Origin: Hormiphora californensis | Taxonomy: Eukaryota; Animalia; Ctenophora | DNA length: 64,000 nt | Direction: 5' to 3' | NCBI GenBank assembly: GCA_020137815.1 | Contig: CM035353.1 | Coordinates: 4,774,001 to 4,838,000, forward strand | Part shown: one piece after another, positions 3,198 through 55,513 of the stretch | How the letters are laid out: every line of letters begins with the position of its first letter | How positions within the stretch are numbered: the stretch's first letter is position 1 | The notes under the pieces: generated by a model | What the model was told of the DNA's origin: nothing | The model's input: only the letters and a program-made list of their open reading frames with translations | Databases searched by the model: none | Position numbers and translations under genes: made by a program

Positions 3198-4440
3198 GAC
3201 AGCAGTTACCACAGGAGGTACCCTCACATTTGCGGACGATACGAAAATACGACGCGCCATTGAAGGGCTTGAGGATACGGATACGCTCCAGAGAGACCTC
3301 GATAGGATTGCAGAATGGTCCAGAAGGAACAATATGCAACTGCATGCTGAAAAGTTTGAGGTGCTCAACTACAGGCTTAATCACACCAAGGAGCAAAGAG
3401 CCCTTCCTCAGGCTATAAGCATACTGATCGTGATGATCATAATCAGGTCAGTGTGCGGAGATTTTGATGATCACCATCAAAGAAGCGCTCACACTGATGG
3501 TTAATGGTTATCATCATGATGGAGGCTTGATGCATCATGATGCTCTCAAACCATAGTGTGTTCACGTTTGATCATCATAAACCATAGTGTGCGCAGGTTT
3601 GATCATCATAAACCATACTCAACTTGTTGGAACTTGCCTTTTGATCATGATCATCATGACCAGTGTGCTCAGCATGATGATGCTATCTCCCCCTTGCCTC
3701 CTCTTGCCTAGTCGCGCACTCTGAGAGGCTGTTGCATATCACGTAACCTGTACAACAGCCTCTCGTGCGCGCGAAGTCGTACCACGTGGTACATGTCACA
3801 TGACTACAGTGCAGCCCTCCATAAGAATAAGATCAGAACGTGCGCACACTAGGTGTTGATGATCATCCAGGGCCAGCTCTTACGTGATGATCATAATGTT
3901 GCGCACACTGCAGTTTTTTGCAGATGATGATGATCAAAACCATGAGCACACTTCATCTTTTTAACTGATTATGATCATCACGATCAGTATGCTTATAGCC
4001 TCACACTGAGGAATGCTACCAATATACCAGCTCATCAGGGGAAATAATTGACCCATCACGCTGGGTGAAAGACCTAGGGATATACATGTCCTCCGATGGA
4101 AAATGGGCAAAGCACACTACAACCATCGCAAGGGAAGGAAAAAGACTAGTAGGATGGATTTTGGGGTGTTTAGAGATCGGGATGACATTTTATCGGGAAG
4201 AAGAGCGGGGCGGTGTAAAAGCTACTCGACCAAAGCTAATATATATATATAACGGATGCACAGGACTCCGTGAAATCGCTTAGAGATGAATCATTCAATA
4301 TGAAAGCTGCTCAACTCTTCAACAGAATGCCAAAAATCGTACAACGATGTACAACTCTAGAAACTGGGAAATATGCTTGAAACCATTCCCGTCTACCCTC
4401 CTTCGTAACAACTCGCTCGTCGCTCTGCTAAAGGAAGGCA
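3198..4440 (+). pseudogene. CR1/L2-like LINE reverse transcriptase remnant, split by a MITE
   Basis: LTFADDTKIRRAIEGLEDTDTLQRDLDRIAEWSRRNNMQLHAEKFEVL (FADD at 3229-3240), continuing after the MITE as ..VKDLGIYMSSDGKWAKHTTTIAREGKRLVGWILG. Confidence 0.85.
3411..4000. mobile_element. PIF/Harbinger-like MITE, TCA TSD
   Basis: TIR ggctataagcatactgatcgtgatgatcataatcag and its reverse complement at 3965-4000; TCA on both sides; interior rich in tgatca/catcatga motifs. Confidence 0.85.
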
Positions 4441-4811
4441 TATAAAAAAGCTCACTTCACATTTCACAACCACTTCACGCGGATACATTAGTTGAGTGCG
4501 TGGTATATTCTTGTGTTATGTATACCGAAACTAATGTGTAAATCTTGTAAAATACTGCAAGTAAAATCTTTATGATTATCCAAATTGCAGCAAAGGAAAG
4601 ACCAACGCAGCGAAAAAGAAAAAGGGTCAAGTTCAACGGAGCGAGCAAATTTATATTGAAGTGAGCAGTTATGTTTTTGTTTCTGAGGTCCAGCAATTAG
4701 TTTTATTGAGAAGAATCTCCCGGCAAAGCAAAAGTACATGAACATTATTGTTGAGCCAGTTCTAGTTATTTCTAGAAATTTGTTTTTAATCTTACTTTCC
4801 ATCAAACTTAA

Positions 4812-5040
4812 AGGTCCTCCCAAACTACTATGTCCCTTGCTGCGCGCGACCGGATTTTAGACGGCCATAGCTCCACCCCCTGATAAGATAGAGACTTGAA
4901 ATTTTGAAATTTGTGAGGAGATCATGTCGAGTTCTTCCTACAAAACAAATTTCAAGTCTCTATCTCATCAGGGAGTGGAGTTATGACCGTGGGAAATTTC
5001 ACAAAACCCGAGTGAGGGACATAGTAGTTTGGGGTGTACT
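4812..5040. mobile_element. TTAA-flanked MITE (Kolobok-like)
   Basis: TTAA at 4808-4811 and 5041-5044; AG termini; imperfect long inverted arms cccaaactactatgtccct..gatagagacttgaaattt. Confidence 0.7.
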
Positions 5041-5418
5041 TTAATTATTTCTCAATTATACAATCATAGATTATACAAACATAGCTGAAATTCTACATAA
5101 CTTTGAGTGGCATTCCTGGCATTGGGGAAGGTTTCGGAGATACCGAGGACACCGAGGCGGGCGTTGGGAATTATACCATTTACCCCATCAATGCTCAGCC
5201 AACCATATATTAAATTTTAACTGTCATTTCTCGTTCAGAGTACTCCAAGAAGACCCCATCTGAAGGATGACATTGAGGATGTAGTAACCCTGGGCCGCCC
5301 CCAGCCTCTGGCTCCCAGTGTCACCCCCCCCTTTTAAATTTTTTATCCGTTACCACCTTAGTAGTATTAGTTATAGCTTATATTATAATTTGTTACCGTT
5401 ATAGATTCAGTTGTTGCA

Positions 5419-5964
5419 ATGGAAAGTGTACTGCTGGAAAGACTACAGTGTCCTGTGTGCGATGATATTAGAACCTGCATAAATGGGCATATTGTGTGTG
5501 CCGATTGTTTGACCAAACTGGATCCTAGGGTCTGTCCGATGTGCCGAGGTGAATTGCCAGAAGTAAGGCATTTGATTTTGGAAGAATTGGCCGCTCTGCT
5601 ACCAGACCCCCCTGCACCCCCTGTCTGTCCTGAGTGCGGGTGCCCTGTTCCTAGGGATGAGATAGAGGTTCACCTCTTGGTGTTTCACCGTGCCGAGAGG
5701 ATTGCAGCCGAGTCGGCCAGGATCACACTGAGCTCCGAGGAGGTGGGCAGCCATGGGATGGTTCTATTAGGAAACCCGGCTGTGGTAATTATGCTAGAGC
5801 CAGGAACTGTACAAGTAATGAACCTGGGTGACAGACGTCGTACGTTTGGGTTCTGTGGACCCCAATTGGAGGAAATCCAGGCGATGGTTTTAGAGCCGGG
5901 GGAGATGTCCCCATTATCATCAATGAACTTGGGGAGAACTTTTCTAGTCGGGCTTCCGGAGTGA
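5419..5964 (+). CDS. Sina/SIAH-like RING finger protein with a second zinc finger (putative E3 ligase), 181 aa
   Basis: CPVC-x5-CxNGHxxCxxC..CPMCR (C3HC4 RING with shortened first loop), RHLILEEL as in Sina, then CPEC..HLLVFH. Intronless, intact, GC-richer than its flanks. Confidence 0.8.
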   Translation: MESVLLERLQCPVCDDIRTCINGHIVCADCLTKLDPRVCPMCRGELPEVRHLILEELAALLPDPPAPPVCPECGCPVPRDEIEVHLLVFHRAERIAAESARITLSSEEVGSHGMVLLGNPAVVIMLEPGTVQVMNLGDRRRTFGFCGPQLEEIQAMVLEPGEMSPLSSMNLGRTFLVGLPE

Positions 5965-6178
5965 TCTCTCTCTGTCTGGCGGCGCCAGACCGAGTAATCT
6001 GTAGTGTTAAATTATACAGTTGTATTAGTTTATGTATTATGTAATTAACTTCTTCTTTTTATTCTTTTATTAGCTATTGGCATTATGCACTACTTTGCAC
6101 CTCCTGCCTCTGTAACCTTTGTAAATTGTATGTCTTGTTCTTTGGAAGTTAACCCCTCTCCACTCTCCCAATCTAGCG

Positions 6179-8254
6179 ATGTTTTGTTGGTGGATCATCT
6201 TACTCACCATTTCGGCCGGGCTGGAGAAGATTGAGGAATGGGAGGAGACTAGGCAGTTCTACCAAACCTCAGATGTGTTGACCAAAGAAGAGCTAGGTAT
6301 CGCTCTATTACCAGATAAACTTCTGGTGACTGCAGAGGAGACCCTCCTGCAATCCGTGTTCCTGAGTGTCAAGATTCCTCCCACCCCCCGAAGTCCGTGT
6401 AACCTGCCTTGTACCCCAGATCTGGAAGTTATTGGACGAAAAGTACCACCCCAGAGCAATGGTGCTTGGATCAAGCAGATGGCAGTCCAGTCAGCTACCG
6501 TGATTGACAAGCTGAAGGTGAGCATTGCAGCTGAGTGTGTATCAGAGTGCCTTGCGGCCAGGCGGTGCAACCAAATCTCCTTTGATTACGCCTCGGGGCT
6601 GTGTCAGCTGGAAACTGGACAGAGTTACAGTGCCGGAAACATCAACCCATCACTACCACCGCTACAGTACACCGCCCGTCTCCCTGTCTTGTTGCAGTAC
6701 ATGGAGATGGATCGTGAAGAGGCGTGTGGCTCAGGCAGGAATGATCTTCATAGCCGATTGGTAAGAGAGATGCAGGTAGTGAGGCGATCCATCCGCCGCA
6801 TGTACATTGACCGGTTTAGAGACCTACAACGGGCCTATGATTTTGGATCCAGTCAACCTGGGAGATCCAGACGGGACTGGGGAATATTCGATGTACTAGA
6901 GCATGTACCTATTGTCGGGCATTTTTACCAGATCCTAAAAAGTCCGGTAGAGAACCGAAAGGTGAAGGAACATCTGCATTCCCTGGAGAGCAGGTTTAAG
7001 AAGTTCTCGGCAGACACGATGAGCTACATGAACAGCATGAGGGAGTATGACGAGCAAGTCCTCAAGATCGTAGACCATGAAATAAACGAAGTTTACGAGC
7101 ACCTCAATGGGGTAAAGTGCGATGTAAATACCGTGGCCAACCTACTGTCGGAGATGATGGCTGACCGCTTGATCGAGCTAAAGATGAAGAGCTTGTTTTA
7201 TAGCTCGGCTCACGGGAAGCTTTCTGTTCCAGTAACAACTACACTCACCATCGAGGATTTGCGGAAAATTACATACAGCAACCCCCTGTTTGAAGATACG
7301 GTGTATCTCAGGAACCCTGAAATCCTCTATCGCCTGGCGGACCTAATGTTGATGGAGATAAAGGAGACACAAACTGACTTAATCTTCCACTTCTTGCTAG
7401 TGACGCCCAAGGTGAAACCCAACAACATTTACCAGACTTTCCAGGCAGTGTCCGTGCCGGTACAACATCCAGAAAATGCCCTCGAGTGCTACCAAGTTCG
7501 ACCGCCTGAGTTAATCATAGTTGATAACCGTCTGGCGTATGCAGTCGAGACCACACAATGTGTGGACAAAGATGGGGTGATATTCTGCCAACAGGAATTC
7601 ACAGATAAGTTCTCACCCTTGAAGACCAGGTGGAATTGTTTTAACGACGGGGACTATGAGTTTGAGGTGAGTTCGTGCGCCACCAAGATGATCTTTACCA
7701 AATTGGGCGGGCTCGTGTTTTCGCAGAAGGAGCTTCTTGGAATGCGAGTCCAGGATCGTTCGAGCCTCACAGTAATTGGGCAACCAGGGAAAACCACCCA
7801 TTTCATCCCGTGGAGTATGTACCAGATGATACAAAGTGATCGTATGGTAATGTACAGCGTTGACAGCAAACTGACATATCGTAACTTGTCATGGGACACT
7901 CCAGCAGAACTCCAGATGGTGAGGAAACAATTCCAGCTGGCCCACATCAAGCGAGATCGGGCAAACTTCACCAAATTAGCCAACAGCCTCCAAGAAACGG
8001 TGACCTTGGTGGAAGGAGACTACAAAATCGGGTACCTGGGTTTACCGGTCTCTAAACGAAATTTTTTTGAGATCCTCGGTTGGGCATCCCTCATCGCCAC
8101 CTGTTGCATGATCGTATCTTGCATCTTCAAGAGGTATCAAGAACACACCCTAGATATAATAGAGTCTCTGGTTGGGTTCAGCAATTGGTTTCTGAGCAGA
8201 GACAGGCGGCCCCAACTCCAGCCATCGAAGAGAAAAACGAGGAAGAAGAGGTGA
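6179..8254 (+). CDS. Class I F-type viral fusion (envelope) glycoprotein, 691 aa, with PAN/apple-like insert
   Basis: Signal peptide aa 1-14. C120-x3-C-x5-C-x11-C PAN pattern. Furin site RSRR at aa 229-232 (6863-6874), followed by the hydrophobic DWGIFDVLEHVPIVGHFYQIL and long heptad helices. Then LLVTP..IYQTFQAVSVPV plus a Cys-rich segment as in baculovirus F/errantivirus Env/paramyxovirus-like F. TM at ~aa 629-650; basic tail. Confidence 0.85.
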   Translation: MFCWWIILLTISAGLEKIEEWEETRQFYQTSDVLTKEELGIALLPDKLLVTAEETLLQSVFLSVKIPPTPRSPCNLPCTPDLEVIGRKVPPQSNGAWIKQMAVQSATVIDKLKVSIAAECVSECLAARRCNQISFDYASGLCQLETGQSYSAGNINPSLPPLQYTARLPVLLQYMEMDREEACGSGRNDLHSRLVREMQVVRRSIRRMYIDRFRDLQRAYDFGSSQPGRSRRDWGIFDVLEHVPIVGHFYQILKSPVENRKVKEHLHSLESRFKKFSADTMSYMNSMREYDEQVLKIVDHEINEVYEHLNGVKCDVNTVANLLSEMMADRLIELKMKSLFYSSAHGKLSVPVTTTLTIEDLRKITYSNPLFEDTVYLRNPEILYRLADLMLMEIKETQTDLIFHFLLVTPKVKPNNIYQTFQAVSVPVQHPENALECYQVRPPELIIVDNRLAYAVETTQCVDKDGVIFCQQEFTDKFSPLKTRWNCFNDGDYEFEVSSCATKMIFTKLGGLVFSQKELLGMRVQDRSSLTVIGQPGKTTHFIPWSMYQMIQSDRMVMYSVDSKLTYRNLSWDTPAELQMVRKQFQLAHIKRDRANFTKLANSLQETVTLVEGDYKIGYLGLPVSKRNFFEILGWASLIATCCMIVSCIFKRYQEHTLDIIESLVGFSNWFLSRDRRPQLQPSKRKTRKKR

Positions 8255-8907
8255 TGAATGAAGGGGAGGTGTTGAAGGAGGTCGAGGTGTTGAAGGAGGA
8301 GGAATAGGCTAGTCGAGTTCTGCTTTACCCCGTTTTGCCCCCCGCCTCTGCTGCTACTAATGGACGCTCTCTCTCTGACTATTTCACCCAACAGCTTCAA
8401 GGATCTATGGTGCAGCACACTGTCACGATGAGGAGCCGGGCCACGGCTTTCATACCCCCTCCTGAAGACGCGGAGTTACCTCCCCTGGAGTTCCCTGGTT
8501 TCTGGTGCGCATGCACCCAGACCCCGGAAGAGTTAAATCTCCCGTGGAGAATTTATGATTCGGAGAGGTTTTTCTCTTGGCCGCTCATCATTAGGCTAAT
8601 AGATACCATCATGGACGGGAGACAGCGGTGGTCCAGGTCCCACTCTACTGCAGCAAAAGAGAGATTGAAGAGGGACATTGAAGACAATAAGAGAGAGATC
8701 CTGACACTGTTGAGAAGGAGGTTGAGGTCGATGAGAGGAGCGAGTGTGAGGTCTGGCAGAGCCGCAGAAATGAGGAGGAGGCTTTTCAGGATTCTGGATC
8801 CACTTCTAGACTGTTTAAATCCGGAAACTCCGGTCATGATCACCTGTCAAGGAATGTACGATGCCGTAGTCGGTATGATTCTTTTGACGCAGGAGGAAGA
8901 ATGGTGA
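8254..8907 (+). CDS. Accessory ORF of unknown function (likely start ATG 8254 overlapping the F stop; one in-frame TAG at 8305-8307)
   Basis: TGATG overlap; MNEGEVLKEVEVLKEEE* is in frame with ORF 8335..8907; homologous fragments at ~47300-47510 and ~52380-52580 show it is coding. Confidence 0.65.
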
Positions 8908-9012
8908 GGAGGTCACGGGCACTGTTGTCGGCACAATAGCTGCACGTGACCGGCCGACCCGATAAAGGAGAAATATAGAAAACAATTGGGAAGATTTACG
9001 TGAGAAAGGTAC

Positions 9013-10685: not shown

Positions 10686-12457
10686 ATAGATGTGTGTCTG
10701 TCAACTATCCCTGTCTGACTTTATCGCCCTCCTCCTCCGGGGTATTATATCCTGGCAGCAGGATTGTAACGGTCTTGTTGTCAGGGTATTAATACTCTGG
10801 CGGGGGTGGGTGGATGCTACCCCATGCGATGTCACACGATCAGCTACTAATCTTGAGTTTGTTTAAGAATTTATATTTATTCACTAAATTAATTATTAAT
10901 TGTTTACTAAAATAATTATTAACATCTAACTTTTTTGCAGAAAATTTTGAGGACCCCAACTCTGGGGAATGGCATGAGGTATTGCTCCTCCTTCCCCTAA
11001 CCCTCAGCCCCCCGCTCGAAGAAGAAGAGGAAGATAGCTTTTTTTACAAAAAATTTAAAACAGAGAAAATAAAATATATATAGTTATTCATTCGTTCCTC
11101 CAATGTCCATACGGTCGGGTGGTCACTCCGACAATGGCCGTTATGGAGGCAGAGAACCAGCAGGCTCAATTCGAGCTCCAACTAGATCCTATAGTCCTTA
11201 AAGACATCGAAGTCGTCCTAAAACCACTGGCGCTGAAAGTGTTTTTGCGTCAGTATTTTTGTCATCACATATACCCGACATGAGTAGGTTCCGATGTAAA
11301 AGGAAATCAGACGTTCACTAAATTAATTATTAATTGTTTACTAAACTAATTATTAACATCTAACTTCATTGAAGATATTAGAATGCACGGAGTCCGGTGA
11401 CATACCATAACGGAGCATGAGCGTAGAAGAAAGTACCAGAGGCCCTCCAACCACTTCCCCTCCCAGGACCCCCACAAGCAGGAGGAACCAGGAAGTCCAG
11501 AAGGAATGGTATGAAGAGGCAATGAATCTCTAGATTGCTCCTCCTTCCCCTAACCCTTAGCCCTCCGCTCTTCAAGATAGCCCAGAGGAGAAGCAGCGGT
11601 TGCTGAAGACAACGCTGTGGACCGGGGTTACGGATTGCAAAATCGCCATGGAGATTGCAGAGGTGCTGGAGTCGGACTTTGCCCGGATAGATGTGTGTCT
11701 GTCAACTATCACTGTCTGACTTTATCGCCCTCCTCCTCCGGGGTATATCCTGGCAGCTTGTAACGGTCTTGTTATCAGGGTATTAATACTCTGGTGGGGG
11801 TGGCCGGTGGGTGGATGCTACCCCGTGCGATGTCACCCGATCAGCTAAAGAAGTTACACCCTTAGCTACGTATGTACTAATCTTGAGTTTGTTTAAGAAT
11901 TTATATTTATTCACTAAATTAATTATTAATTGTTTACTAAATAATTATTAACATCTAACTTCTTTGCAGATTTTGGAGGATCCCAACTCTGGGGAATGGC
12001 ATGATGAGGTATTGCTCTTCCTTCCCCTAACCCTCAGCCCCCCGCTCGAAGAAGAAGAGGAAGATAGCTTTTTTTACAAAAAATTTAAAACAGAGAAAAT
12101 AAAATATATATAATTATTCATTCGTTCCTCCAATGTCCATACGGTCGGGTGGTCACTCCGACAATGGCCGTTATGGAGGCAGAGAACCAGCAGGCTCAAT
12201 TCGAGCTCCAACTAGATCCTATAGTCCTTAAAGACATCGAAGTCGTCCTAAAACCACAACGTTACGTCGCTGCTGGCGCTGAAAGTGTTTTTGCGTCAGT
12301 ATTTTTGTCATCACATATACACGACATGAGTACGTTCCGATGTAAAAGGAAATCAGACGTTCACTAAATTAATTATTAATTGTTTACTAAACTAATTATT
12401 ATCATGTAACTTCATTGCAGATATTGGAAATTGGAATGCACGGAGTCCGGTGACATA
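10686..12457 (+). repeat. Tandem duplication of a ~720-770 bp module (10686-11404 / 11687-12457)
   Basis: Near-identical blocks, including atggaggcagagaaccagcaggctcaattcgagctcc and AT-rich introns. Confidence 0.9.
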
Positions 12458-19035: not shown

Positions 19036-19377
19036 TTAAAATTCATAAAAAAAGCTCTCTTCTTCTTCGAGCGGGGGGGGGGGGGGGGGGGGGGGGCTAA
19101 GGGTTAGGGGAAGGAGGGGGGGGTACCAACCATTTTTGTGTACGGATGTACGGAAAAAGCAGGCAATATTTTTTTGTACAGTCCGTACAAAAAAATACAA
19201 AAAAGTTTACTGCTGTCGGGAACTTTTTTGGTGCCTTCTACAGGTCTCTAGAGGCGCTCGAGGTCCTTCTATTATTAGCCTCTAGAGTGTTTATTTAGTT
19301 TATTTTACCATTCCCCGTCCCCACGACTCCTAACTAGAACAAGTCTTACTAATGTGCAGAAATTCATAGCATTAGCG

Positions 19378-19587
19378 ATGCCTAAATACACGACATGCAA
19401 GCAATGGAAATGCAAAAAGTGCCGATTTACGAACAAGGGAACAAGCCTCACATGTGAGAGGTGTCGTGACAAGAAAGAGAATGGAATGTCACTCGATAGG
19501 CTGCCGGGGGACTGGCTTTGCAAAAGATGCCAGGTTTCTAACTTTGCTCGCAGAACAAGATGTTACGGATGTGGAGAATCCCGATAG
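19378..19587 (+). CDS. 69-aa protein made of two RanBP2-type zinc fingers
   Basis: WKCKKCRFTNKGTSLTCERC and GDWLCKRCQVSNFARRTRCYGC, both matching W-x-C-x2-C-x3-N-x6-C-x2-C; intact ATG to TAG. Confidence 0.8.
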   Translation: MPKYTTCKQWKCKKCRFTNKGTSLTCERCRDKKENGMSLDRLPGDWLCKRCQVSNFARRTRCYGCGESR

Positions 19588-25132: not shown

Positions 25133-26087
25133 TATTTGAGTTGGTTTGAAAACTCACATCATTTTTCTACCGCTTCAGAATAAGGAAAGAAATGACTGGA
25201 TGCACATTCAACGACAAAATACGTGAAGAGAAAACCAAAAAAATACTAAAACTCTTTACAAATTATATGAAGAAGCCAAAATCGAAAATTTAGAACATAA
25301 ATATAAAGATGTAAAGAAAGAAAGAGATAGTTTAAAAGATGAAAATGAAAATTTGTTAAAAGAAATTGAAAGATTAAAGATGGAGTTAGCCAAAAAGGAA
25401 AAAGGACAGGGTGAGGCAACATACATGGCTAACCTGGTGCTGCCAGAGTTGGGGACTGACGTATTTTCAGAAATCGACCTCAACCTTGGATATACCACAA
25501 CTTGGGCTGAATAAGGTAAGCTACTGCTGCATTATAGAGGGGTAAAACAAGTAACGAAGAGCAGTTGACAACTACAGTCAACAAAAGCTCCGCTCACAAG
25601 ATAAAGAACAGGAACTGGTTTCCGAGAATTAAAAACTGCTTCTTGTACAAGCAATTTCCGTCCAATCAATGAATGTGCAGCTATCATATTATACAATATA
25701 TTTCATAGTTATATTTGATTTATATCTAATAAAACCCTCCCTTCCACTCCTTATAAGAGGATTATGATTATGTTATTCCACAAAGAATAAACGGGAAAAG
25801 AGAAAACTATACATTTTCTTCAGTGACAGCGAAACGGAGGAAATTAATTCTTTCTTTCTAGATATTTGAAAGTGAAGATCTAACGAGCTTAGCTTATCAT
25901 GATGCAAAGGAGATGAAGGAGATTTACAAATGTAATAATTAATAAGCAACATCCGTCAATGTTAATTATATACTGGGTTTAATTTTGTATGAAAGTGACT
26001 ATCGCCAAATCAATTATATATGATATAATTTCAGTTATTATATTAACCGGTAGATATAACAATGTTACTGGATTCTTTAACATACTT

Positions 26088-45533: not shown

Positions 45534-45736
45534 TCGTTATCAGGTGCGGTCCCCTCCTTTGATCATCGTGGAGAACCGTGTAGCGTATGCGGTGGAGACT
45601 ACCCAGTGTGCAGAAAAGGACAATGTGATCTTCTGCCAGCAAGGTTTCGACCAATTCTCGCCTCTGAAGAAGCCCTGGGACTGTTTTAACGCGGGAGATT
45701 GTGACATGGAGGTTAGGGAATGTTCCACGGCCATGG
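45534..45736 (+). pseudogene. Fragment of a second, diverged F fusion gene
   Basis: YQVRSPPLIIVENRVAYAVETTQCAEKDNVIFCQQGFDQFSPLKKPWDCFNAGDCDMEVRECSTAM aligns with F at ~7490-7690 (YQVRPPELIIVDNRLAYAVETTQCVDKDGVIFCQQEF..). Confidence 0.9.
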
Positions 45737-45764
45737 GTTTTCGGCTCTAAATCTATTTTTAGTA

Positions 45765-46642: not shown

Positions 46643-47686
46643 GTAAGTGTTCACTACCCATGAACGTACATGAACCATTTAGTACTGCTAATGTAATCTG
46701 TAATTATAGTAATTAAAATAAGTTTGATGATAGATACAGCTCAGACAATAAGAGTTCTTCCCCGGAGAAGACCCCCCATGATGGAGGATACAGCACTCCA
46801 GAAATTTACCAAGTCATCAGGTTGTAGAGAAAACAGGAGGAGCAATCAACTTAATTAACTTCACTCCCTGTACGAAACAGGAGCTCGAACAAGAGAAAGA
46901 TGAAATAACGAAGGTATAAAATTAAGGACAGACGATGAGCTAATACTAATAATTTCAGCTCAACGTAGCAAGAAGCAAGAACCCGTGTGCGATGTACTCT
47001 CTGCTACATCTGATGCTGCGCCAGATGGCAAGTATCATCATGAGGATAAAATGTAATAGGTTTTGTCTGTGGCTAGCGGGAGATCAGTATGCGTTGGACA
47101 CTTTAGAGACATCATCACCCGGTCAAGAGGAACGACACAAGACCTCTGTCGGATCTGCTTAAGGTCACGAAAGGTATCCTGCTGATAGACGACTTCCTGG
47201 TTGAGATCAACCACCCCTTCACAAGAGATAACTAGTGTTACTATGTAACCGTGTGTAGAGAGAGTAAACAAAGGTATAATAAAAATGGAGGAAATAAGAT
47301 GAGATCTCAATAACGGATGGAGGAAGAAGAAATGGAGGTATTTGATACCTGCCACTGCCAGACTGAGGTCGCACCGGAATGTATCAGACCGATCATTGAG
47401 AGGCAGGGCCATCTCTCGGAGGTTCTTCAGGATTGTGGACCCCCTCCTCCTCGCGCTGACGCCTGGCACCCCTGTACTTGTCACCTGCACCGGTCTGCGG
47501 TGTTTGGTACCTGTCCGAACAAACACAACGATTATAAAGAGCCCAACATGCCAGTCGAGAAGATAATACCTTTCTTAGTTGAGCATGCAGAAAGGAACCA
47601 ACAAAACACAACGGAACCAACAAAACACAACGATTATAAAGAGGGTGTCAATACCTGTCGGAACCAACAAAACACAACGATTATAA
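46643..47686 (+). repeat. ~1-kb module duplicated at 51852-52759; includes a paralog remnant of accessory ORF 8254-8907
   Basis: RLRSHRNVSDRSLRGRAISRRFFRIVDPLLLALTPGTPVLVTCTG vs RLRSMRGASVRSGRAAEMRRRLFRILDPLLDCLNPETPVMITCQG. Confidence 0.85.
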
Positions 47687-51749: not shown

Positions 51750-53216
51750 GAGAGAACTCCACCACCTCCACCACCACGGAGACCGGTAAACCATGTTTAC
51801 CCAATGACACTGCCCCCCTGGTCACCCCCATGAGATACACAATTCCGAAGCGGTAAGTGTTCACTACCCATGAACGTACATGAACCATTTAGTACTGCTA
51901 ATGTAATCTGTAATTATAGTAATTAAAATAAGTTTGATGATAGATACAGCTCAGACAATAAGAGTTCCGGAGAAGACCCCCCATGATGGAGGATACAGCA
52001 CTCCAGAAATTTACCAAGTCATCAGGTTGTAGAGAAAACAGGAGGAGCAATCAACTTAATCAACTTCACTCCCTGTACGAAACAGGAGCTCAAACAAGAG
52101 AAAGATGAAATAACGAAGGTATGAAATTAAGGACAGACGATGAGCTGATACTAACCTGTGACGGGTGCGTTGGACACTTTAGAGACATCATTACCCGGCC
52201 AAGAGGAACGACACAAGACCTCTGTCGGATCTGCTTGAGAGAGGTATCCTACTGATAGACGACTTCCTGGTTGAGATCAACCACCCCCCTCCAGAAGATA
52301 TAGCTAGTGTTACTATGTAACCGTGTGTAGAGCGAGAGTAAACAAAGGTATAATAAAAATGGAGGAAATAAGATGAGCTCTCAATAACGGATGGAGGAAG
52401 AAAAAATGAAGGTATTTGATACCTGCCACTGTCAGACTGAGGTCGCACCGGAATGTATCAGACCGATCATTGAAAGGCAGGGCCATCTCTCGGAGGTTCT
52501 TCAGGATTGTGGACCCCCTCCTCCTCGCGCTGACGCCTGGCACCCCTGTACTTGTCACCTGCACCGGTCTGCGGTGTTTGGTACCTGTCCGAACAAACAC
52601 AACGATTATAAAGAGCCCAACATGCCAGTCGAGAAGATAATACCTTTCTTAGTTGAGCATGCAGAAAGGAACCAACAAAACACAACGGAACCAACAAAAC
52701 ACAACGATTATAAAGAGGGTGTCAATACCTGTCGGAACCAACAAAACACAACGATTATAAAGAGGATTTCAATAAATTGTATAATATTAAAAGAAATGGA
52801 TCAGAGCGTCTCAGAGATGATGGAATAGAGGACTCAACATGCAGACTGTGTGAGGTGGTATTGATCCCCATTATATATGTCTGTAAAAGAGACATAGTAC
52901 GCTTTTGCAGAACAAACGAAATGTTATTTTTAGTTACAAAGTTAAAAGGACTCTGTAGACAAGACAAAATACTGTCAGACACAACTATTTGCATGTAACA
53001 AGCAGTGTAACCATGGTTACACAACTATTTGCATGCAACGAGCTGTGTAACACTCAGAAAATACATATGAATATACTTTATAAAACTTATAAAGAGGGTT
53101 TCAATAAATTGTATAATATTAAACTTTAATTGCATGCAGCAAGCTGTGTAACACTCTGAAAATACAATGAATATATTTTATAAAACGTATAACTTCTTTC
53201 TTTGCTATATATCATA

Positions 53217-55513
53217 TAGTTAGGACCACTATTGGTGCGCGGTCGTGCCCACGGAAGGAGTGCTTGGATCATCATGAAACCGGTTTTAAGTTCACTAATG
53301 CATGCCCAAAAGTGTCTGTAGCCATTTGGGTGATGTTCTGACAATCCAATCACGAGTTATGACCGAAAAACAGTCAAAAAAGACGTTTTAAAGTGACAAA
53401 AAGGAGGATCTGAACACAGCCCTTATAATATGAAGGGCTGGGGCTTTGAAACTTCTTGTGTGGACAGAGAATCGTCCAAATTTGCAGTGTCAACTTCCTT
53501 TAAATAGTGGCATACACCGATGGATCAGTAATCAAAACCAAAAAGCCTTACAAGCAAATTACGGGAGCAGGCGCAGCAATATACTTCCCCGAAGAGGTAT
53601 GCGAACTCAAATATCCCCTTGCACCAGAAAACACTATTAACCAAGCCGAACTCAAGGCTATCGAAATAGTAGCCGACCACCTCCTCAACAAAAAAATTAC
53701 CAATCATAACATAATAATTAAGTCAGACTCCCAAACAACGATAAACAGAATTTTTGGGAAGTTAAGTTGTTCCAACAACTAACCAGAACAATATCAAAAT
53801 TACACGAACTCCAAAGATCAAACACATTATCAATAGAAAAAGTCAAAGCTCACGCCAACATCGCAGGAAATGAAAAAGCAGACAAACTGGCAAAAGAAGC
53901 AGCGGCAGCGAGCCCAAGTACTCAAAATGGTATAGGATTAAATACCTCCCAGATCAAAAACAAGATCAAAGAATATCTAAAAACAAGAAATACGACGAAC
54001 CTGATAAACAAGAAATACAACAGATTCACAACCGCCATAGTAACAGAGCTAATATAAAATCCCATAAAGGTCACTGATAAAATGCTCAGAGAACTAACAC
54101 TAGCAATCTCGGGCCAAAACAACCTCGCGGCCTCCCAACACCACCAAGATACAAAAATTAACCCAAAATGCGACCTCTGCAACGCGAAAGAGAACTCAGA
54201 ACATGTCATCATATATTGCCCCAGACTTGATGAGGTTAGATACAGACTAAACTACCAAAATGTAGTTGAGGAAATCTATGGAGACGAGAACCTTGACTGG
54301 AACAAATTCACCCAATTAATACACAAAAGCAAACTGTTCAGATAACCCTCCATAATAACCCTCCATATTTCAAACCACCATCCCACACTATATAACAAAT
54401 TTCTATGAGTGACGCACATAGATACCGAAACCTCTAAACATTCCACACGCCAGAGTTCCGTTTTGGGAAGGAACCTGCCCTAATTACCCCATGAACGGCC
54501 GGACGCTGCATCTGCATCATGAACAAAAAGTGATGTTCCATGAACCCCCATGGAGTACTGATTACAAATCAGAGGTTGGCAGCGCAAAATCTATAAAGGT
54601 GCCATAGTCAATGGAGCGTCCGAATTGTCCTAGCTAAGGCCACATCGAAAACGATCAATGCTGAGATACCACTCACCAAGGATCGCTGGAGATATCCGAG
54701 ACTGGCACAATGTGAAAACAGTGCTGGTGCGGCCCTTTTCATGAGACCTGTCAAGACAGTTATGGGAGACGATTCCACCCTTATCTCTAAATCCATGGAC
54801 ATAAGACGGAGGAAGAATACTCTCCCGGGGGAAAGAGGAAACTCTGGAACCTGAGCTCCGTCCATCTCGGGCGTGAGGAACTGGCTGCCGGACGGGATAA
54901 AATCTCAAGTGGAGGACCGGAAGCGGAGGCGCTTACAACAACAACAACAACAACAACAAGTGTCAACTTTCAGATAGTTGCTATCTTTTGTAGTTATCTA
55001 ATTAGAGTCGTTTAAACATGTGAGAAGTTGCTAAAGGGCCCTATAATACTGCTTGTGAAGTGATCACTTGACGAGATTTGCCCAATTAGAGAGCGGATTA
55101 AAGCATACAAGCGGTGAGAGCAAGCAATATGAGACGGAAGTAGTACCTAATCACCCTGTTTTGTAGGGTCATATAGGTTGTCTCACATGTTTAAACGACT
55201 CTAATTAGATAACTACAAAAGATAGAAACTATCTGAAAGTTGACACTGCAAATTTGGACGATTCTTTGTCCACACAAGAAGTTTCAAAGCCCCAGCCCTT
55301 CATATAAGGGCTGTGTTCAGATCCTCCTTTTTGTCACTTTAAAACGTCTTTTTTGACTGTTTTTCGGTCATAACTCGTGATTGGATTGTCAGAACATCAC
55401 CCAAATGGCTACAGACACTTTTGGGCATGCATTAGTGAACTTAAAACCGGTTTCAAGATGATCCAAGCACTCCTTCCGTGGGCACGACCGCGCACCAATA
55501 GTGGTCCTGACTA
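53217..55513. mobile_element. hAT-type foldback element, 8-bp TSD ATATCATA, with nested LINE
   Basis: TIR tagttaggaccactattggtgcgcgg / ccgcgcaccaatagtggtcctgacta; TSD at 53209-53216 and 55514-55521. Confidence 0.9.
53497..54958 (+). mobile_element. 5'-truncated RNase H-containing non-LTR retrotransposon (I/R1/Tad-group-like) with (CAA)n tail
   Basis: AYTDGS..GAGAAIY..NQAELKAI..IKSDSQ..KVKAHANIAGNEKADKLAK (RNase H); C-terminal CDLC..EHVIIYCP; one frameshift and one stop; 11-bp TSD AGTGTCAACTT at 53486-53496 and 54959-54969. Confidence 0.9.

Follow-up and report, generated by a model that had tools for sequence, protein, structure and literature searches.

The intronless open reading frame at positions 6179–8254 (+ strand) of the window, which is the whole 64-kb stretch of DNA analysed here, is assigned by its predicted structure to the paramyxo/pneumovirus-type class I fusion proteins and has predicted fusion activity. 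The F2 subunit of the encoded protein holds a genuine PAN/apple domain with predicted disulphides. The best explanation of the whole, to which we give a probability of about 0.55, is that an F-type fusogen carries the PAN domain at its apex as an attachment module and that its source is the env gene of a ctenophore errantivirus.

The 691-aa protein is laid out as an F-type class I fusion (envelope) glycoprotein, in which a putative signal peptide, a basic cleavage site, two heptad helices and a TM anchor are all present. The hydrophobic N-terminus reads as a putative signal peptide (aa 1–14; 6179–6220) and is followed by a long F2 β-strand (aa 55–65; 6341–6373), which is common to the insert-less relatives and paramyxovirus F2. 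Between this strand and the PAN domain (aa ~92–171; 6452–6691) lies a linker (6398–6451) that contains C74-x3-C78 and, in the AlphaFold model, a short helix; C78 is invariant and C74 nearly so in the 39 insert-bearing proteins of the family. The alignment and the model then place Cys183, followed by a long F2 helix at aa 189–220, within 6725–6838. The furin-type motif RSRR (aa 229–232; 6863–6874), with Arg232 nearly invariant in the same 39 proteins, is the predicted cleavage site, directly after which comes the predicted fusion peptide (aa 233–258; 6875–6952), a stretch of low pLDDT. F1 continues with the heptad repeat A helices, which include Cys314 (aa 256–339; 6944–7195; alignment and model), the β domains with conserved Cys437, 461, 470, 487 and 500 (7214–7873; model and family alignment), a modelled heptad repeat B or stalk helix (aa 575–615; 7901–8023) and a transmembrane helix (aa ~628–651; 8060–8131; hydropathy peak 2.21). 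All of these features are on the + strand. The cytoplasmic tail has 40 aa, compared with ~100 aa in many relatives, and a search for a frameshift in the tail gave a weak best match (E = 0.014). In the nine-member subclade of the query, the predicted fusion peptide has many Trp, Phe and Asp/Glu residues, unlike the Gly/Ala-rich fusion peptides of more distant members, and is the best conserved of nine regions (55% mean identity). This aromatic and acidic composition may hint that the trigger depends on pH or on ions.

The assignment to the F family comes from profiles and predicted structure. No fusion-family Pfam match, PF00523 included, was found in the protein itself. A word-index protein search returned two relatives, Mnemiopsis leidyi P0001 (35%) and P0002 (34%), both of which have weak PF00523 and PAN matches in Pfam, and cluster representatives searched with a profile gave 245 proteins at E ≤ 0.001, of which the best 150 are the matches listed. 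Against solved sequences, a family profile of 99 sequences retrieves RSV F (E = 1e-11), hPIV3 F (2e-9) and SML-2 (1e-5). The AlphaFold model of aa 30–625, built from the 99-sequence alignment, has a mean pLDDT of 86.4 and a pTM of 0.71. Foldseek matches this model to RSV F with E = 2.7e-12, and VIA-align superimposes RSV F on it with Z 13.2 and an rmsd of 5.7 over 361 aligned residues. A second structural comparison scores postfusion RSV F slightly above the prefusion form (Z 15.1 versus 13.5), which indicates that the monomer model is mixed in state. The ESM Atlas gives weak, sub-0.8 leads to F/Baculo_F/Gypsy env clusters.

The first-pass annotation had proposed a PAN/apple fold for aa 97–165 (6467–6673) from a C-x3-C-x5-C-x11-C pattern upstream of the furin site. 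Cys120, 124, 130 and 142 have exactly this spacing, RSRR follows at 229–232, and the fold is borne out by sequence and structure. The PAN HMM search that the annotation had suggested places PAN_1 above its curated cut-off: the match spans aa 107–157 with E = 2e-5 and 24.8 bits versus a cut-off of 21.4 for the whole protein, and the insert stretch alone scores 29.4 bits. The PAN_4 match is weaker, and when the sequence is compared singly with those of solved structures, the top match, the Toxoplasma MIC4 apple domain (E = 0.14), is not significant alone. A leave-one-out insert profile, built from 38 relatives with the query protein excluded, scores the query at 28.4 bits, compared with at most 6.4 bits for 200 shuffles and at most 2.1 bits for 30 insert-less relatives. 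Seven relatives (P0002, P0009, P0019, P0050, P0051, P0059 and P0065) pass Pfam PAN cut-offs independently. In the AlphaFold model, most 10-residue blocks of the insert have a pLDDT of 87–97, and the insert folds as a helix on a curved antiparallel sheet, as in solved apple domains. Apple/PAN structures match model residues ~55–155 (aa ~84–184) with Z values of 6.8–8.6 in VIA-align: SML-2 apple (2yil; Z 8.6, rmsd 2.9, 78 aligned), MIC4-A5 (2ll4; Z 7.7, rmsd 2.1, 69 aligned), factor XI (Z 7.9), kallikrein (7.8) and HGF-N (6.8). The location given by the annotation is therefore right, while the domain itself is slightly wider (aa ~92–171).

PAN/apple domains occur in four- and six-cysteine forms, in which the outer pair is optional. 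The four core cysteines are nearly invariant in the 39 insert-bearing proteins at a mean insert identity of 18.6%. The outer pair (positions aa 96 and 170) is missing in the query; both outer cysteines are present in 34 of the 39 proteins and both absent in five, and neither ever occurs singly, as expected of a disulphide pair. These five proteins are the query and a separate four-member clade, which indicates two events. Core cysteines held despite the low identity, together with an all-or-none outer pair, argue that the PAN fold is kept under selection. The PAN cysteines are additional to the F core: they are absent from the insert-less relatives and do not align to the ordinary F2 core, whereas an alignment to that core is what the annotation had named as contrary to its claim.

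To compare homologues for presence and absence of the domain, as the annotation had also suggested, we aligned 80 proteins of at least 480 aa among the matches listed, with the query included and its near-copy P0003 excluded. Eleven without an intact N-terminus or F1 were removed, and 69 full-length proteins were compared. The insert is carried by 39 of the 69 and is absent from 30, a split that is no measure of prevalence because the search profile was built on insert-bearing proteins. The span from the F2 strand to the cleavage site is 155–206 aa in the insert-bearing group versus 47–87 aa in the insert-less group, and contains nine cysteines in 30 of the 39 and one cysteine in 22 of the 30. 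At E ≤ 0.1, Pfam finds PAN_1 in 13, PAN_4 in 9, PAN_2 in 8 and PAN_3 in 4 of the 39 insert-bearing proteins and no PAN family in any of the 30 insert-less ones, while PF00523 matches number nine in each group. The two groups align by profile at 100% probability with a gap at the insert, and the insert-less relatives align with paramyxovirus F2 through the strand-loop-Cys-helix without a break. The module thus lies within F2, as first proposed, as an insertion that separates the F2 strand from the helix that follows it.

In a quick phylogeny built from F1 only, presence or absence of the insert needs a single change (support 72); shuffled labels give 22.6 expected changes, and none of 500 shuffles is as low as one. 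The alignments and the F1 tree most likely reflect one event long ago, clade-wide, with gain and loss fitting the F1 tree alike. The annotation had missed that the insertion is old and shared by the clade, rather than a capture particular to this gene, and the host-type donor and receptor binding that it inferred are putative. P0039, which branches basally on the insert-bearing side, shows the flanking C-x3-C plus a third cysteine but no PAN domain, and is apparently a pre-insertion or deleted state. Small knots of 3–5 cysteines occupy the same F2 loop in the insert-less P0101, P0107, P0116, P0123 and P0146, and this loop seems especially prone to additions.

The gene lies in a cassette of three ORFs on the + strand. 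Upstream is an intronless ORF for a RING-like zinc-finger protein (5419–5964; 181 aa; GC 0.52), whose weak Pfam RING matches are below cut-off. Downstream is an ORF of no known family (8407–8907; 166 aa), for which neither Pfam nor a homologue search gave a match and the ESM Atlas gives a TBC lead of low recognition. The GC content of the cassette is 0.49–0.52 versus 0.41. The most likely source of the gene is a ctenophore Ty3/gypsy element with an env gene (errantivirus). The relatives with an organism name are ctenophores, namely P0001 of Mnemiopsis leidyi and P0161 of Pleurobrachia bachei, the latter in the cluster of P0010, which is the tree sister of the query, and the host of the query is accordingly likely a ctenophore. 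Nine ctenophore errantiviruses are catalogued, six of them with an F-type env (Chary and Hayashi, eLife, PMC13524379, supplement 1), and the fold class and host group of the query are those of the F-type ENV in the available text of that paper, a comparison by description and not by sequence.

It is somewhat unlikely that the gene came instead from an RNA virus (lispivirus-like), or from a DNA virus or Polinton-type element, and became endogenous with the RING and unknown ORFs. A viral source of this kind would explain the compact, intronless, GC-rich cassette and the retroelement parts not found nearby: Pfam gave no match to gag, LTR-type pol or integrase in three + frames over 5.4 kb on each side of the gene, nor in 127 of the 188 ORFs listed for the window except for non-LTR-type RNase H/zf-RVT at 53.5–54.3 kb, and no direct repeat that could be an LTR flanks the cassette within the 64-kb window. 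The top viral-model folds in BFVD (Foldseek) are also lispivirus glycoproteins (E = 4e-15, 11% identity). However, the lispivirus matches share 11–14% identity, versus 31–36% for the ctenophore and other relatives; the Mnemiopsis sequence P0001 has two accessions of identical sequence (KAL5253529.1/KAL5253941.1), with a chromosome-scale record of up to 17 Mb; several relatives are on contigs of 8–12 kb, the size of an LTR element; and F-type errantiviruses of ctenophores are already on record (PMC13524379, available text). Loci of the gene family and of P0031 were searched for in metagenome and viral contigs, and none was found. A viral, non-retrotransposon origin is compatible with the attachment role considered below.

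The family alignment places Cys183 on RSV F Cys69 and Cys314 on RSV F Cys212, which we take to be the partners of the F2–F1 disulphide bond of RSV F. By this homology, Cys183 is inferred to pair with Cys314 and so to join F2 to F1, and the insert is placed just before the cysteine that matches RSV Cys69. Site O of RSV F, formed by residues 62–69 and 196–209, is at the trimer apex (PMC6922093, available text). Since the insert adjoins the equivalent of Cys69 in this region, the predicted position of the PAN domain is on top of the prefusion trimer, at the end farthest from the membrane.

A putative role of the PAN domain in attachment is the reading that we slightly favour, on the grounds of its apex position, of fold matches that are mostly binding modules, and of a precedent for specificity set by F2. 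Most of the solved matches, among them the lectins SML-2 and MIC4, factor XI, kallikrein and HGF-N, are binding modules. In RSV and HMPV, F2 sets the host-cell species specificity, and the F protein of pneumoviruses performs both attachment and fusion by itself (PMC3564117, available text), so that the annotation overstated its case in regarding attachment plus fusion in one protein as special. In the proposed mechanism, furin would cut at RSRR, F2 with its PAN domain would stay tied to F1 via Cys183–Cys314, three PAN domains would top the trimer and engage a glycan or protein on the cell surface, and F1 would then refold and fuse like other F proteins. The column that we take to be that of MIC4 Lys469, located via a chain-numbering offset, holds Glu145 in the query and Arg in 18 of the 39 insert-bearing proteins. 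The query thus lacks the galactose-binding lysine of MIC4-A5 type lectins, and this column would speak against a simple galactose lectin, as Lys469 is needed for sugar (galactose) binding in MIC4 (PMC6608980, available text).

Alternatively, the PAN domain would be a structural cap that controls triggering by clamping or shielding the metastable apex (heptad repeat A) and has no receptor, which we regard as unlikely. The insertion lies beside the F2–F1 cysteine in a region that refolds, the query does not retain the sugar-binding lysine of MIC4, and insert-less P0101, P0107, P0123 and P0146 have cysteine knots of their own in the loop. Good conservation is confined to the cysteines and core hydrophobic positions: mean identity over the 39 proteins is 18.6% for the PAN stretch, 17.8% for the F2 helix and 23–25% for the F1 β domains (31%, 29% and 41% in the nine-member subclade), so that conservation in the PAN stretch does not exceed that in the F2 helix and no binding surface stands out. 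A variable surface is, however, equally expected of a receptor-binding domain across hosts, and the variability of the insert would fit a host-tracking binding surface or a cap alike. Most of the solved fold matches are binding modules, and 30 relatives manage without the domain, both of which argue against a cap. Within the attachment reading, we rate at somewhat less than even the chance that an old RSV-like fusogen lineage in ctenophore or other marine mobile elements captured a cellular PAN domain in the F2 apex loop and uses it as a receptor-binding domain. If so, it would be an F-family spike with one module for attachment and one for fusion that shows how class I fusogens gain binding modules, with the insert-less sisters and the apparent pre-insertion form P0039 still extant.

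The copy in the window is solitary and probably decaying. The cassette is on one unique contig, 5267–8992, in run X1, a possible source of the window. Run X8 does not cover the gene, and contigs from X5/X6, which represent a single second sample, have a 7-base insertion at 7038 that shifts the frame at ~aa 287; in addition, the cysteine kept at aa 493 in 37 of the 39 proteins is absent from the query. It is this insertion and this lost cysteine that suggest decay. The second sample also differs from the window by four bases in the gene, two silent and two not, which are too few for an estimate of selection. It is rather improbable that the host has domesticated the copy as a syncytin-like fusogen or adhesion gene and retained it for a function of its own after the loss of gag and pol: the open frame of 691 codons, solitary and on a unique contig in run X1, would suit such a gene, but the frameshift contigs, the missing cysteine and the shuffled scraps of related F genes in the window all weigh against it.

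Two N-terminal scraps of another F gene lie at 11152–11315 and 12170–12361 (+) inside a ~1 kb tandem duplication; the most similar proteins are those of the P0027/P0031/P0032/P0034 clade (~40% identity, E down to 1e-9). A 68-codon F1 piece at 45538–45741 (+) is 68% identical to aa 438–506 of the fusogen and is a diverged paralogue fragment. F-gene scraps at these three sites indicate that the fusogen family visited this genome more than once. Pieces at 47369–47497 and 52443–52571 (+) are 51–53% identical to aa 108–150 of the downstream ORF of the cassette, and many short internal duplications occur at 34–60 kb. RanBP-type zinc fingers (E = 1e-11) and a weak bZIP-like stretch are present at 19279–19587 and 25227–25514 (+), and 53504–54345 (+) holds disrupted RNase H and zf-RVT stretches from a non-LTR-type retroelement. 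Inverted-repeat elements, both skipped by the contigs, occupy 3410–4001 and 4808–5044; the first splits a remnant at ~3200–4400 that, by a motif in its translation, presumably resembles the end of a LINE reverse transcriptase and has no Pfam match. With its F-gene scraps, its pieces of the downstream ORF and its short duplications, the window has the look of a patchwork of captured bits of genes, and we would guess at a putative Helitron-like process behind it.

The least probable reading, which takes the PAN match for a coincidental spacing of cysteines or for a part of the ordinary F2 core, could point to a whole-protein Pfam score just 3.4 bits above cut-off and to apple Z values of 7–8.6 that are close to the range the alignment tool calls common, but we reject it with near certainty because independent evidence from sequence and fold points to one and the same stretch, on which ~20 PAN-clan structures align, relatives pass the Pfam cut-offs themselves, the outer cysteines occur jointly or not at all, the leave-one-out profile scores well, and 30 relatives lack the stretch wholly.

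The PAN and F parts are known families, the class of carrier is described, and attachment and fusion by a single protein are known. The F-type ENV of errantiviruses likewise has an RSV-like F fold, a furin site and a fusion peptide (both predicted in the query), and a head and stalk; it is recorded in Beroe, Hormiphora, Mnemiopsis and Pleurobrachia, two of which also yield the named relatives of the query (PMC13524379, available text). Four conserved domains are described for it, and PAN/apple is unmentioned in the available portions of the text and seven supplements, although the F alignment figure of that paper may show the insert. Errantiviruses carry gag, pol and LTRs, none of which was found around the copy in the window in the frames, ORFs and repeats searched. 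The F proteins of RSV, HMPV and hPIV3 (PF00523) share the whole ectodomain fold with the query (Z 12–15), and pneumo- and paramyxovirus F also share the F2 strand-loop-Cys-helix, the basic cleavage site, two heptad repeats and the F1 cysteines. In contrast to them, the query has ~100 extra F2 residues that form the PAN domain, a predicted fusion peptide that is aromatic and acidic rather than Gly/Ala-rich, and 8–11% identity.

The PF00024 domains of SML-2, MIC4-A5, factor XI, plasma kallikrein and HGF-N have the same fold (rmsd 2.1–3.0 over 69–79 residues) and cysteine spacing as the insert. SML-2 is from Sarcocystis and MIC4 from Toxoplasma, whereas the PAN domain of the query sits in a fusogen loop, has four cysteines instead of six and does not keep the galactose-binding lysine of MIC4. 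Neither a discrete cell-type domain inserted in the F fold nor a PAN domain in a fusogen was found in the literature searched, which includes few subscription papers. F-type fusogens are usually described as one architecture that needs a separate attachment protein or binds via surfaces of the core fold. Here an adhesion-type domain is placed in one particular loop, so that 39 proteins with it can be compared with 30 that lack it, and the insert, being small and expressible by itself, is a concrete candidate for the part of invertebrate retroelement envelopes that binds the receptor.

In influenza HA1 and coronavirus S1, too, a class I fusion core carries a module for receptor binding, and a route of this kind has long been proposed for the acquisition of binding modules by class I spikes. 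The design is the same, with a binding domain on or in the subunit that is not anchored. The binding folds of HA1 and S1 are, however, unrelated to that of the query, which is a domain of ~80 residues whose family is widespread among cellular proteins, and, unlike in the HA1 and S1 case, insert-less sister proteins are still at hand. The fusogen family would thus be a natural example of the proposed acquisition of binding modules by class I spikes.
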